In this document: positions 1,570-5,480 of the stretch, piece by piece
Layout: every line of letters starts with the position of its first letter
Numbering within the stretch: the first letter of the stretch is position 1
IMG/VR virus record: IMGVR_UViG_3300045988_017397
Length of the DNA stretch: 5,480 nucleotides
Origin: a virus
Strand: one strand, 5' to 3'
Program-made: the position numbers and the translations under genes
The notes under the pieces: model-generated
What the model saw: the letters and a program-made list of their open reading frames with translations, nothing else
Databases searched by the model: none
What the model was told of the DNA's origin: nothing

Positions 1570-1617
1570 AGTGGGCCTAATCCTATCAAGAAGAGGATTA
1601 GGCCCACTATTTATTTT
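1570..1617 (+). terminator. Intrinsic terminator after VP4
   Basis: There is a perfect 15-bp stem, agtgggcctaatcct (1570-1584) pairing with aggattaggcccact (1594-1608). The loop is 9 nt (atcaagaag), and atttatttt follows. It starts 8 nt after the VP4 stop (TAA 1560-1562). Confidence 0.85.
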
Positions 1618-1640
1618 CGCTTATTATATATAACTTGTTG

Positions 1641-1668
1641 TAGCCGTAGTAGTAGGGGCTGTGGAAAA
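1641..1668 (+). promoter_or_regulatory. Candidate DnaA-trio / GC-cluster / DnaA-box element (basal-unwinding-system-like)
   Basis: The sequence reads TAG CCG TAG TAG TAG (1641-1655), GGGC (1656-1659), TGTGGAAAA (1660-1668). The 9-mer is the reverse complement of TTTTCCACA, which fits TTWTNCACA at 9/9 and TTATCCACA at 8/9. An AT-rich tract (1611-1640) lies on the trio side. Confidence 0.5.
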
Positions 1669-3027: not shown

Positions 3028-3496
3028 ATTTCGGAGCGCATACAGCGGGCAGGTAAGGCATACGAGCCTGACCGGCAACGGCCGTGAGCCGGAATATGAG
3101 TACAAGGTAACGGAAGAAGGCCGGGAGCTGGTAAAAACCGGAGAAAAGGACGTCTATGCACTCATCCAGAGCCGTCTGGATGAAACCAAAATCGAAAACA
3201 TCATCAAGCGGGCAACGTATGACCCGACTGCACTGGGCAGTCAGGACTGGCAGACCAGCGAGACGATGACCGATATTTCGGACGCGCCGACAAACTACCA
3301 CGAGTGGTATGGGCGTATCAAAGACGCGGAGGCAGAGTTTGACAAACTGCCCATCGAAGTCAAAAACAAGTGGGACAATGATGTCGAAAAATACATCATG
3401 GCCTATGGAACCCAAGAGTGGGCAGACAAAATGGGCATAGCAAAACAGCAAGCCGAAGCAGAAAAACCGGCTGAAAAAAGTGAGGTGAAAGAATGA
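3020..3496 (+). CDS. VP3: VP3 internal scaffolding protein, 158 aa
   Basis: I chose ATG 3020 (MSKFRSAYSG...), with SD GAGGG (3007-3011) 8 nt upstream, over the ORF-track start at 2858. The N-terminal xxFRSAY motif, the acidic middle and AEFDKLPIEVKNKWDND (the FxxLPxExRxxF-type motif) are typical of gokushovirus VP3. It overlaps the VP5-like stop (ATGAGTAA) and the VP1 start (ATGA). Confidence 0.8.
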   Translation: MSKFRSAYSGQVRHTSLTGNGREPEYEYKVTEEGRELVKTGEKDVYALIQSRLDETKIENIIKRATYDPTALGSQDWQTSETMTDISDAPTNYHEWYGRIKDAEAEFDKLPIEVKNKWDNDVEKYIMAYGTQEWADKMGIAKQQAEAEKPAEKSEVKE

Positions 3497-5109
3497 ACCG
3501 CAACAGTGAATACAACTTTGCGGAAAATCCGCAGGTCGGAGTAAGCCGCAGCCGATTCCAGCGCAACAGCGACAACAAAACGACCTTTAACACGGGCGAC
3601 CTCATCCCTATCTATCTGGACGAGGTGCTACCAGGTGATACACACCAAGTCGATGTTGCGTGTGTGATGCGAATGGCAACACCCATCTTCCCGGTGATGG
3701 ACAACGCCTTTTGCGACTTTTACTTCTTTTTCGTGCCTAACCGCTTACTGTGGGAACACTGGAAGGAGTTTATGGGCGAAAACAAGGAGACCGCATGGAC
3801 ACCTAAAACGGAGTACAGTGTGCCGCAAGTAACGGCACCGACGGGCGGATGGGCAGAAGGTACGCTGGCGGACTATCTAGGTCTGCCTACCAAAATCGAG
3901 GGCATCAGCGTAAGCGCTCTGCCCGGCAGAGCCTACGGTCTCATCTATAACGAATGGTTCAGAAACCAGAACGTGACACAGCCGACACTTGTAGAAGTGA
4001 CGGACGCGACCACGACCGGCAAAAACGACGGCAGCGCTACCAACGACAACGCAATCACGTTGGCAAAGCCTCTCAAGGCAGCAAAGGTGTTTGACTACTA
4101 CACCGGAGCACTCCCTGAGCCTCAGAAAGGCGAGCCAATCACGCTGCCTCTGGGCGGGGCAGCGATGGTACATCTTTACGAAGATAAAAGCCTAAGCAAA
4201 ATAGCGAGAAATGGATACGGATACATCGGAAAAGATGTATTGGACAATACACCATTCACAATGAGCGAAATAGCAACGGATGGCGTCAACGTACCAAACA
4301 AAGTAGACGCATTCACAGGAAACTGGCTGGGGGCAGACCTCAGCAACGTCACCGCAGCTACCATCAACCAGTTACGTCAGGCGTTTCAGATTCAGAAGCT
4401 GCTCGAAAAAGATGCGCGCGGCGGCACAAGATACCGTGAGGTGCTGCGCGAACACTTCGGGGTTATCTCTCCTGACTCTCGTATGCAGATTCCGGAGTAT
4501 CTGGGCGGCTACAGACTGCCTATCAACGTGTCTCAGGTTATCCAGACCTCTTCGAGCGACGACACGAGTCCGCTGGGCAACACAGCGGCGCTAAGTGTTA
4601 CCACGATGAACAAACCCATGTTTACCAAGTCCTTTACGGAACACGGATTTATCATGGGACTCGCAGTGGTACGAACCGACCAAACCTATCAGCAGGGTAT
4701 CGAGCGCATGTGGAGCCGAAAAGGCCGGTATGATTACTACTGGCCGGTACTGGCAAACATCGGCGAACAAGCCATCCTCAACAAAGAAATCTATGCACAG
4801 GGCAACGCAAAGGACGATGAAGCATTCGGCTATCAGGAAGCATGGGCCGACTATCGGTATAAGCCAAGCAAGGTTACCGGCCTGTTCCGAAGCAACGCAC
4901 AACAGAGTCTCGATGCATGGCACTATGCACAGGACTACGACGCGCTGCCTACTCTGAGCACCGCTTGGATGGAACAGGGCGAAACCGAAATGAAACGGAC
5001 TCTTGCGGTACAGTCTCAACCAGACTTTATCGGCGACTTCTACTTCATGAACAAAACAACTCGATGCATGCCGGTCTACAGCATTCCCGGCCTCATCGAT
5101 CATCACTAA
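3493..5109 (+). CDS. VP1: VP1 major capsid protein (Microviridae F-protein fold), 538 aa
   Basis: SD GAGGTGA lies at 3482-3488. Hallmark gokushovirus VP1 blocks are present: RSRFQRNSDNKTTFNTGDLIPIYLDEVLPGDT, FCDFYFFFVPNRLLW, ATINQLRQAFQIQKLLEKDARGGTRYREVLREHFGV and RMQIPEYLGG. The size is typical for the subfamily. Confidence 0.97.
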   Translation: MNRNSEYNFAENPQVGVSRSRFQRNSDNKTTFNTGDLIPIYLDEVLPGDTHQVDVACVMRMATPIFPVMDNAFCDFYFFFVPNRLLWEHWKEFMGENKETAWTPKTEYSVPQVTAPTGGWAEGTLADYLGLPTKIEGISVSALPGRAYGLIYNEWFRNQNVTQPTLVEVTDATTTGKNDGSATNDNAITLAKPLKAAKVFDYYTGALPEPQKGEPITLPLGGAAMVHLYEDKSLSKIARNGYGYIGKDVLDNTPFTMSEIATDGVNVPNKVDAFTGNWLGADLSNVTAATINQLRQAFQIQKLLEKDARGGTRYREVLREHFGVISPDSRMQIPEYLGGYRLPINVSQVIQTSSSDDTSPLGNTAALSVTTMNKPMFTKSFTEHGFIMGLAVVRTDQTYQQGIERMWSRKGRYDYYWPVLANIGEQAILNKEIYAQGNAKDDEAFGYQEAWADYRYKPSKVTGLFRSNAQQSLDAWHYAQDYDALPTLSTAWMEQGETEMKRTLAVQSQPDFIGDFYFMNKTTRCMPVYSIPGLIDHH

Positions 5110-5120
5110 AGAAAGGAGAC

Positions 5121-5148
5121 AGCCGGGGACAAAACCCCGGCTATTTTT
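5121..5148 (+). terminator. Intrinsic terminator / attenuator between VP1 and VP2
   Basis: An 8-bp GC-rich stem pairs agccgggg (5121-5128) with ccccggct (5135-5142) around the loop acaaaa, and atttttg follows. It begins 12 nt after the VP1 stop (TAA 5107-5109) and ends 5 nt before the VP2 ATG. Confidence 0.75.
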
Positions 5149-5152
5149 GAAA

Positions 5153-5480
5153 ATGGCAATACCAGCCTTATTAGGAGCCTTATCAACAGGCGCAAAAGTA
5201 CTGGGTGGCGTAAGCAGCCTTATAAGCGCAGGAACCGGCATCTTTAACGCACTCAAAGGCACATCGGGTAGCGGAGCAACAAGCTCGAGCGGATACCAAA
5301 CGAGTCAAGGGGCAAGCGGTTCGACCATGACCGGAGAAAGCGGAGTAAACATGGACCAGACAAAAGAGCTGGCAAAATACTTTCTGGGGCAGAGCCAACA
5401 AGCGCAGGGCATGCAGAGCTTGCAAAACAACAAAAACTCTCTCTTGGCACTGGGCTTAAACACTCTGGGAGCTATCCAGC
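5153..5480 (+). CDS. VP2: VP2 / DNA pilot protein, N-terminal part (continues through the circular junction into 56..543)
   Basis: The ATG is at 5153-5155. Hand translation gives MAIPALLGALSTGAKVLGGVSSLISAGTGIFNALKGTSGSGATSSS...[22 protein letters not shown] with no stop before the window end. The N-terminus is hydrophobic and Gly-rich, as expected for a pilot protein. The frame is continuous with 1..543. Confidence 0.85.
   Translation, partial: MAIPALLGALSTGAKVLGGVSSLISAGTGIFNALKGTSGSGATSSSGYQTSQGASGSTMTGESGVNMDQTKELAKYFLGQSQQAQGMQSLQNNKNSLLALGLNTLGAIQ
5426..5480. repeat. Terminal direct repeat, copy 2 (circular-genome overlap)
   Basis: Identical to 1-55. Confidence 0.97.

Follow-up and report, generated by a model that had tools for sequence, protein, structure and literature searches.

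In textbook accounts, microviruses replicate by means of a phage Rep nickase and the elongation machinery of the host, and the chromosomal initiator takes no part. The iteron-type theta origins of P1 oriR, F, pSC101, R6K, and RK2 contain DnaA boxes and rely on a Rep initiator that the plasmid encodes and that binds iterons of its own; DnaA boxes also make up titrating clusters such as Escherichia coli datA and the DnaA-box clusters of Bacillus subtilis. We know of no plasmid or phage-plasmid theta origin that carries DnaA-trios and of no natural basal unwinding system (BUS) recognized before outside a chromosome. The BUS of dnaA-dnaN (incC-type) oriC was defined in B. subtilis (Richardson 2016/2019; Pelliciari 2021, PMC8287927; PMC6669920; PMC10721633). 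Here, we analyze by computation a stretch of 5,480 nucleotides (nt) from IMG/VR record IMGVR_UViG_3300045988_017397 (the window), which holds the complete circular genome of a gokushovirus (5,425 nt, with bases 1-55 recurring at 5426-5480). Positions 1607-1853, within the 466-nt gap between the Rep gene VP4 and the next gene, probably form a compact origin module of the chromosomal type, a "mini-oriC" of ~250 bp that would be read by host DnaA on the double-stranded replicative form.

The module and the hairpin upstream of it consist of the following features:

1570-1608, + strand, perfect 15-bp GC-rich hairpin (AGTGGGCCTAATCCT / AGGATTAGGCCCACT, 9-nt loop), 8 nt past the VP4 stop and followed by a T-rich run
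1607-1640, candidate AT-rich duplex-unwinding region, ending in TAACTTGTTG (1631-1640)
1641-1655, + strand, five in-phase trinucleotides TAG CCG TAG TAG TAG, DnaA-trio-like (5'-TAG-3' = 3'-GAT-5')
1656-1659, spacer GGGC of 4 nt between the trios and the proximal box
1660-1668, + strand, box 1, TGTGGAAAA (TTTTCCACA on the opposite strand), differing from the consensus DnaA box at one position
1668-1677, + strand, box 2, (A)GTTGAAAAC, directly abutting box 1 as a tandem pair
1722-1730, + strand, cluster II box TGTTGAAAG
1734-1742, + strand, cluster II box TGTTGAAAA
1745-1753, + strand, cluster II box TGTTGAAAT
1753-1761, + strand, cluster II box TGTTGAAAC
1796-1804, 1808-1816, 1817-1825, and 1845-1853, + strand, cluster III direct boxes, all TGTTGAAAA
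1833-1841, cluster III inverted box, TTTTCCACA on the + strand

Comparison with the basal unwinding system

The earlier note on this DNA had placed an oriC-like basal unwinding element at 1611-1668, and its reading of the letters is accurate throughout: 1611-1640 is ttattttcgcttattatatataacttgttg, with 24 of 30 bases A/T, and the strings at 1641-1655, 1656-1659, and 1660-1668 are those listed above. The intergenic length of 466 nt that it gave holds if the first downstream gene begins at ATG 2029. Its interpretation agrees with the sequence grammar, the conservation, and the host match described below and understates the extent of the element, which goes beyond a basal unit to a full array of boxes. 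The note had missed ten more boxes within 1668-1853, of which one is inverted and nine are direct, as well as the perfect 15-bp hairpin just upstream, whose T-rich tail makes up part of what had been taken as the AT tract.

The published BUS search program allows a box with up to 2 mismatches, a second box with up to 4, a spacer of 0 to 16 bp, and requires at least three NAN trios (PMC8287927). The element conforms to every sequence rule of this program. Box 1 has one mismatch to TTATCCACA, and the abutting second box, AGTTGAAAA at 1668-1676, has three; the 4-nt GGGC is followed directly by three TAG, then CCG, then TAG, with strand and polarity set by the box; and an unstable AT-rich region lies beyond the trios. 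It departs from a BUS in its location, being no chromosomal origin and adjoining neither dnaA nor dnaN; the genome codes for VP1-VP5, and dnaA and dnaN are not among its genes.

The likeness to the BUS thus includes tandem boxes, a 4-nt G/C-rich spacer, at least three 5'-TAG-3' trios, and an AT tract in equal order and polarity, and it extends to the distance of the distal box from the first trio (12 nt; the published peak is 10 to 13). In Firmicutes, the DnaD recognition element consists of 5'-TnnT-3' pairs on the strand opposite the trios (PMC10201434). The complement of 1647-1655, CTACTACTA, has T at positions 2, 5, and 8 and hence paired 5'-TnnT-3' motifs of this type, which is a weak test, as every TAG repeat passes it. 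The differences lie in the setting, a 5.4-kb genome of a single-stranded DNA (ssDNA) phage without dnaA or dnaN, in one trio being CCG, in the better box being the proximal one, and in the phage-specific TAACTTGTTG ahead of the trios. The phage element would therefore be best described as BUS-like, or a mini-oriC by its grammar in a new setting, and not as a chromosomal oriC. For B. subtilis itself, the strand opposite the trios is 5'-CTACTATTACTTCTACTA-3', so that the trio strand reads TAGTAGAAGTAATAGTAG, or TAG TAG AAG TAA TAG TAG (PMC10201434). This bears out the trio part of the B. subtilis junction TAGTAG-GGCC-TGTGGATAA given in the earlier note.

The core 22-mer at 1647-1668, TAGTAGTAG-GGGC-TGTGGAAAA, is the same as the core of real bacterial dnaA-dnaN origins. 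Within the window, the relaxed box TTWTNCACA matches only twice (0.36 expected), at 1660-1668 on the - strand and at 1833-1841 on the + strand, and the composite TAGTAGTAG-N4-TGTGGAWAA has a single match there, whereas 200 dinucleotide shuffles gave none, even with 2 mismatches allowed. The element is not a chance match.

Between the hairpin and the trios, from 1607 on, lies the 30-bp stretch where the duplex is weakest in the entire genome (nearest-neighbor dG of -29.3; genome mean of -40.4, standard deviation of 3.6). The hairpin at 1570-1608 is a 100% complementary inverted repeat with a DNA fold of -17 kcal/mol (z = -6.1; 0/200 shuffles as good); it is terminator-like and would provide a GC-rich boundary to the candidate unwinding region. 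Relatives have hairpins of unrelated sequence at the same spot, often with alternating CG/CA runs. Such CG/CA-run hairpins (e.g., CATGCGCGCGCGCGCG…CGCGCGCGCGCATG) stand upstream of the AT tract in L004-L011, L016, and L017, where only the structure and the G+C richness are kept. As these runs are prone to cruciform or Z-DNA formation, they might form a supercoil-sensitive boundary of the unwinding region. A search of Rfam returned only two spurious microRNA-like matches, on the hairpin (E ~0.5), and a structured RNA or known noncoding RNA was rejected on this result.

Conservation, orientation, and position among relatives

By blastn against GenBank, the module was found in 49 microvirus records and in no other phages, and PLSDB gave no plasmid match, on which basis a plasmid origin was rejected. 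The closest GenBank record is Gokushovirus WZ-2015a (KT264798; 92% identity). A pattern that fixed only TTGTTG and the trios, with all other columns unconstrained, retrieved 77 microvirus contigs from IMG/VR, whose VP1 and VP4 proteins are 42 to 88% (median, 48.5%) and 32 to 98% (median, 46%) identical to those of the window. The register of box, spacer, and trios, whose conservation the earlier note had proposed to examine, is kept at the unconstrained columns in 75 distinct junctions. These show nine A/T-only positions (columns -13 to -5), a nearly invariant TAAC (-4 to -1), a 4-nt purine-rich spacer, (T/A)GT(G/T)GAAA(A/T), and, for box 2, a nearly invariant GTTGA(A/T)(A/T)A(C/G). The box 1 position holds TGTGGAAAA, AGTGGAAAA, or TGTTGAAAT in relatives, and the spacer is 4 nt long in most of them and 75% purine.

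Among the GenBank relatives, the trio block is 15 nt long and in phase, and the three box-proximal trios are TAG in most, with TAA, CAG, or NCG in L008-L010, L012, and L018; in the IMG/VR set, the search pattern itself dictated these trios. NCG often stands in for one trio, whose position varies. In total, 130 distinct modules were collected. As a negative control, 42 viral contigs from outside the microviruses that have the same trio string proved to be low-complexity coding repeats in which boxes are absent. The one match labeled "Bacteriophage sp." (L326; MT836079.1; 13,156 nt; human feces) is a fragment of a bacterial chromosome with TAGx6-GGGC-TGTGAATAA-GTTGAAAAC beside a dnaA gene and without VP1 or VP4. 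The presence of the module in phages other than microviruses was rejected on these grounds.

As MT836079.1 shows, pieces of host oriC with part of dnaA do occur in viromes, and it could be argued that the module is an assembly chimera of a host oriC and a phage contig or a recent capture without function. Against this, the module is collinear and in register in the 49 GenBank records and, across several studies and animal hosts, in over 100 IMG/VR contigs, the exact VP1 of the window is recorded in three independent human-gut metagenome assemblies, and no long identity to any sampled bacterial origin was seen. We regard this explanation as extremely unlikely.

An unbiased sample of 69 VP1 relatives was scored with a strict junction pattern, which 37 of the 49 contigs with a VP1 identity of at least 79% passed. 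Six of the twelve that failed are full-length, and five of these have the module with small variations of trio or box; the sixth (L283) breaks inside the module, as does the short L286, and the other failing contigs are short. In KT264799 (L263; 88% identical), the hairpin, the AT tract, five TAGs, the spacer, and two boxes are kept and the distal clusters are lost, making this genome a natural variant with the basal unit only. Some 450 nt of unrelated sequence take the place of the distal clusters there (3548-4048), with an open reading frame (ORF) from ~3703.

The module is not tied to one strand or one site. In KT264800 and MG945867, it follows VP4 on the strand opposite all genes, and KT264784 and KX513864 have it between VP2 and VP4, likewise inverted. 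Among the 77 IMG/VR contigs, 62 carry it in the direct and 15 in the inverted orientation (62 to 19 when the GenBank genomes are added; n = 81). Occurrence in both orientations and at two positions is what a signal read on duplex DNA would permit, whereas complementary-strand origins, primosome sites, and other signals read on the packaged strand would not tolerate it. The module therefore most likely acts on the double-stranded replicative form. Of the roles put forward earlier (DnaA-assisted opening for a VP4 nick, DnaA-dependent helicase loading, and hijacking of host DnaA), those that depend on the viral strand are disfavored by the orientation data, which render opening for a VP4 nick less straightforward without removing it.

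Such opening would amount to DnaA-assisted rolling-circle replication, in which the module melts the duplex and the HUH endonuclease VP4 nicks the exposed strand at a candidate site, TAACTTG|TTG, within 1631-1640. HUH enzymes require a single-stranded substrate, and the 75 relatives keep TAAC and TTGTTG, immediately 5' of the trios, almost without change; the bacterial origins lack both. The phiX174 origin (gpA nick at CAACTTG|ATATTAATAAC; CAACTTG|ATATT, rep_origin 4306) has AACTTG in common with TAACTTGTTG, in both cases within AT-rich DNA close to the gene for Rep, and the two Reps, gpA and VP4, are homologs. Six shared bases are, however, weak evidence, and the phiX174 origin lies inside gene A without DnaA elements. 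Moreover, wherever the cassette is inverted, the phage motif is too: 15 of 77 carriers (second count, 19 of 81) have it on the strand opposite to the genes, so that nicking there would make inverted carriers package the antisense strand; we know of no such packaging in Microviridae. In relatives without the module, TAACTTG is not enriched (6 and 4 occurrences against 6.8 expected per strand), and it was rejected as a universal Rep site. Overall, we consider a role of this kind quite unlikely.

Distal box array

The sequence GTTGAAA occurs nine times on the + strand within 1669-1852, compared with 0.86 expected in the whole window and with 0/200 shuffles. Altogether, eleven 9-mers of one family, among them two TGTGGAAAA sites, are packed into 195 bp. 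They form three clusters (1660-1677, 1722-1761, and 1796-1853); one of them is inverted, and the other ten are direct. Nine boxes of the form TGTTGAAAA or TGTGGAAAA extend past the basal unit at 1722-1853. The cluster II boxes are conserved in relatives, where single boxes interconvert among TGTTGAAAA, TGTGGAAAA, TGTGGATAA, and TGTTGATAA. Over the 130 modules, the box cores number 846 for GTTGAAA, 182 for GTGGAAA, 41 for GTTGATA, and 32 for GTGGATA. Position 4 of these ~1,100 boxes is T in 887, G in 214, and C in none, which excludes Spo0A boxes (0A box, TGTCGAA) and with them a host-state sensing of the phi29 type, TGTTGAA being one base off.

Some smaller observations concern the array itself. 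The arms TGTGGAAAAGTT (1660-1671) and AAGTTTTCCACA (1830-1841) are complementary at 11 of 12 positions; a DnaA box rebuilt by pairing of these arms in ssDNA, akin to an "A-site" of the ABC primosome, was rejected, as most relatives lack the inverted box. At box position 7, T is overdispersed among modules (observed variance reached in 7 of 2,000 simulations), and covariation of box variants within phages was set aside because it is confounded by phylogeny. The spacer between clusters II and III (1762-1795) exists in two unrelated versions family-wide (window; L006-L010, L012, and L016), one promoter-like as in the window and one with a small hairpin (TGCACAAA…TTTGTGCA).

A dense array next to a Rep gene could also represent iterons for a phage protein, either VP4 or the product of one of the small ORFs at 2029-2697, with the likeness to DnaA boxes being coincidental. 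Geminivirus and rolling-circle plasmid origins have iterons read by their own Rep, the direct repeats here adjoin the Rep gene, and four small ORFs have no family. Yet the box sequence stays constant while VP4 drops to 32 to 46% identity, unlike Rep-specific iterons; the same boxes, trios, and spacer are found in chromosomal dnaA-dnaN origins without phage genes; and the cassette shifts its position among carriers that vary in gene content. This makes the iteron explanation very improbable. With the theta plasmids, the module shares boxes adjoining an AT-rich region on an extrachromosomal replicon that uses the host initiator, and it differs in that the phage "iterons" would be the DnaA boxes themselves. 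An iteron-binding initiator of the plasmid type was not found among the genes, which include only the HUH Rep (PF23343, phrog_942) and the small ORFs without family.

Alternatively, the array could act as a DnaA sponge or switch with no role in unwinding, multicopy boxes either titrating DnaA, so that chromosome initiation would be blocked and resources for replication set free, or tying phage transcription to the DnaA-ATP status of the host. Eleven boxes in 195 bp would suit such a function, which would be as indifferent to orientation and position as is observed, and the array encloses a promoter-like site (1764-1793) and precedes a perfect sigma-70 promoter by ~120 bp. The "inc" regions of B. 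subtilis are named for such incompatibility, and DnaA stimulates lambda pR. Known titrating clusters likewise have dense DnaA boxes outside the chromosomal origin, but they are without trios and an unwinding region in register with the boxes. Neither titration nor transcription control needs trios, a fixed 4-nt spacer, or the weakest duplex of the genome, yet these are the most conserved parts, and KT264799 keeps trios, spacer, and AT tract where the distal boxes are gone. As the sole function, titration or switching thus has a low probability.

The same grammar in bacterial origins

When the composite TAGTAGTAG-N4-TGTGGAWAA was scanned against 185,579 bacterial and archaeal species genomes, at least 120 loci, mostly oriC regions, were found, against ~35 expected by our own arithmetic under uniform composition. 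Among the matches listed, a fourth trio lies directly upstream in 83 of 120 loci, a second box within 0 to 2 nt in 84, and an AT-rich flank in 93; a DnaA-like ORF is present in 49 of the 120 fetched stretches, on a constant side and strand with its 3' end towards the boxes. These flanking, second-box, and dnaA features show that the pattern specifically marks dnaA-dnaN origins and is more than a loose motif match. Spacers of GGCC and GGGC followed by TGTGGAWAA are the commonest forms among these matches, GGGC being the single commonest (21 of 120), and bacterial spacers are 75% G+C. The exact 22-mer of the window is present in 12 of the listed loci.

Two of the loci, L095 (Ruminococcus sp. RGIG7051, a metagenome-assembled genome [MAG] from sheep rumen) and L134 (Eubacteriales MAG CAKSSR01, Hadza gut), match the distal module too. 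Both have the Pfam-confirmed layout dnaA-[boxes-BUS-AT tract]-dnaN, with intergenic regions packed with TGTTGAAAA, TGTTGAAAG, and TGTGGAAAA boxes (18 and 15 GTTGAAA cores in 500 bp) and devoid of the canonical TGTGGATAA. They share with the phage the box alphabet (TGTTGAAAA/G, TGTGGAAAA) and a dense, mostly direct arrangement beside TAGx5 with a GGGC or TGTC spacer. They differ in also holding inverted TTTTCAACA boxes, in being two to three times longer (intergenic lengths of 516 bp for L095 and 792 bp for L134, against ~250 bp for the phage module), and in giving no long alignment. The two regions (L095, 4984-5499; L134, 3993-4784) consist almost wholly of TGTTGAAA(A/G)/TGTGGAAAA boxes (reverse complement TTTTCAACA) with no canonical TTATCCACA, and their box type appears to be an uncharacterized, lineage-specific DnaA-box variant. 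Other Clostridia among these loci have TGTGGATAA or TGTTGATAA boxes.

Details seen in the phage recur in some Clostridia origins, exemplified by L077 (Lachnospira multipara ATCC 19207) and L042 (Ruminococcus sp.), namely TAG TCG TAG TAG TAG, with one NCG interruption, and TTGTTG right before the trios. An NCG interruption may thus be normal for host origins, and its presence in the phage copy need not be a defect.

An independent indication of the host comes from CRISPR predictions for phages of this group, classed as "Family 3 Gokushovirinae B," in which Faecalibacterium is predicted for KT264789 and KX513868 and Ruminococcus, Flavonifractor, and Oscillibacter for other relatives (PMC9239249 Table S1; Kirchberger et al. 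2022). KT264789 and KX513868 both carry the module. The box alphabet and the CRISPR prediction therefore indicate the same lineage, Oscillospiraceae-like Clostridia.

Among the DnaA ORFs compared (L042, L095, L134, L124, and others), the fifth residue after RDH(S/T)T, in the box-reading helix of domain IV, is Tyr in every genome with GTTGAAA boxes, where canonical-box genomes have His, the equivalent of E. coli His439. Tyr is also found there in cyanobacteria with TTTTCCACA boxes and in some genomes with canonical boxes, and the exchange is only suggestive as a cause of the variant box.

Proposed mechanism and points against it

From these features, we infer DnaA binding, unwinding, and all downstream steps as follows. 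DnaA domain IV would occupy the eleven closely spaced boxes, ten of which point to the trios and whose type (TGTTGAAAA/TGTGGAAAA) is that found in the chromosomal origins of the probable host lineage. An ATP-DnaA oligomer starting at the tandem pair (1660-1677) could cross the GGGC spacer onto one strand of the TAG trios, whereupon the AT tract would open, bounded by the GC hairpin. The displaced CTA strand would expose TnnT motifs of the type bound by DnaD in B. subtilis, which makes helicase loading the natural next step. The most likely outcome would be that the host replicative helicase is loaded and that the replicative form is replicated (theta-type) or primed without Rep. Binding and opening of the element by DnaA is, in our view, likely; that helicase loading or theta-type replication is its main purpose is a more tentative proposal, for which we would put the chances at somewhat less than even. 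Searches with the window returned no Rfam family, plasmid match, or recognizable phage DNA-binding regulator that would give another reading.

Several observations weigh against a DnaA-read origin module. The genome encodes a complete HUH Rep (VP4), which should make a second initiation system unneeded. A subclade at 54 to 57% VP1 identity is without the module, which is hence not essential to gokushoviruses as such. The CCG among the five trios violates the NAN rule; the proximal box is the better consensus match, opposite to the published bacterial trend, in which the distal box is; and the invariant, phage-specific TAACTTGTTG is left unexplained by the DnaA model. The likeness to the 120 listed bacterial loci is at the level of motifs only, with best blastn matches of 33 to 58 nt; as tblastx also found no phage genes in these loci, recent capture from a sampled host was rejected. 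Finally, chromosomal initiation in B. subtilis is perturbed when multicopy DNA supplies additional clusters of DnaA boxes, and titration alone could therefore be the selected effect.

Implications

A full-text literature search, in which most subscription journals were outside coverage, found no prior report linking Microviridae or gokushoviruses with DnaA or oriC-like elements. The module suggests that these phages have recruited the chromosomal initiator of their host. If true, this would mean a second host-initiator-dependent step, or a plasmid-like lifestyle, for a phage group that is highly abundant in the mammalian gut. It could further be speculated that gut gokushoviruses of Gram-positive Oscillospiraceae carry a self-sufficient DnaA-dependent origin, their replicative form behaving like a minichromosome, independent of Rep and coupled to the host cell cycle. 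These "lytic" ssDNA phages would thereby gain a plasmid-like carrier state, which would explain their long persistence in the gut. We consider this extended version rather unlikely.

Under the same premise, the box alphabet of a phage would report the DnaA specificity of its host and could serve as a signal for host prediction. The module makes the grammar of an origin testable on a 5-kb replicon. It also adds sequence-based evidence that the clade infects Gram-positive Clostridia, among which microvirus hosts are barely documented (PMC9239249), and points to the TTTTCAACA variant of the DnaA box in Oscillospiraceae-like origins. At least at the level of regulatory DNA, it runs counter to the view that microviruses share essentially nothing with host genomes.

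Neighboring features

All genes of the window are on the + strand, and the surroundings of the module are as follows:

5153 across the junction to 543, + strand, VP2 pilot protein
540-1562, + strand, VP4, HUH Rep (PF23343, phrog_942)
1764-1793, promoter-like site (TTTACC, 18 nt, TATAAT) between box clusters II and III
1975-2003, perfect sigma-70 promoter (TTGACA, 17 nt, TATAAT, with TG ahead of the -10), ~120 bp beyond the last box
2029-2697, + strand, four small ORFs without a family match
between the small ORFs and VP1 in the listed gene order, + strand, a 39-amino-acid basic ORF, VP5, and the VP3 scaffold
3493-5109, + strand, VP1 capsid protein

The gene after the gap probably starts at ATG 2029, which is preceded by a Shine-Dalgarno sequence, whereas ATG 2002 falls in the -10 element of the promoter at 1975-2003; together, this promoter and the Shine-Dalgarno start fit a host of the Firmicute type. 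Between the array and the promoter lies a GC-rich element (1862-1950, …GTCACGTCATGCTCTTCGCACGGCGCACCGCGCCTACCGCATGAC…) whose nucleotide sequence is conserved in only 27 of the 62 direct carriers, and every inverted carrier lacks it. Its predicted fold does not surpass that of shuffled sequences (z = -0.9), and it was rejected as a strand-fixed marker of a Rep origin. Between the VP1 stop and the VP2 start, a strong bidirectional terminator-like hairpin (AGCCGGGG…CCCCGGCT) is found at 5121-5142.

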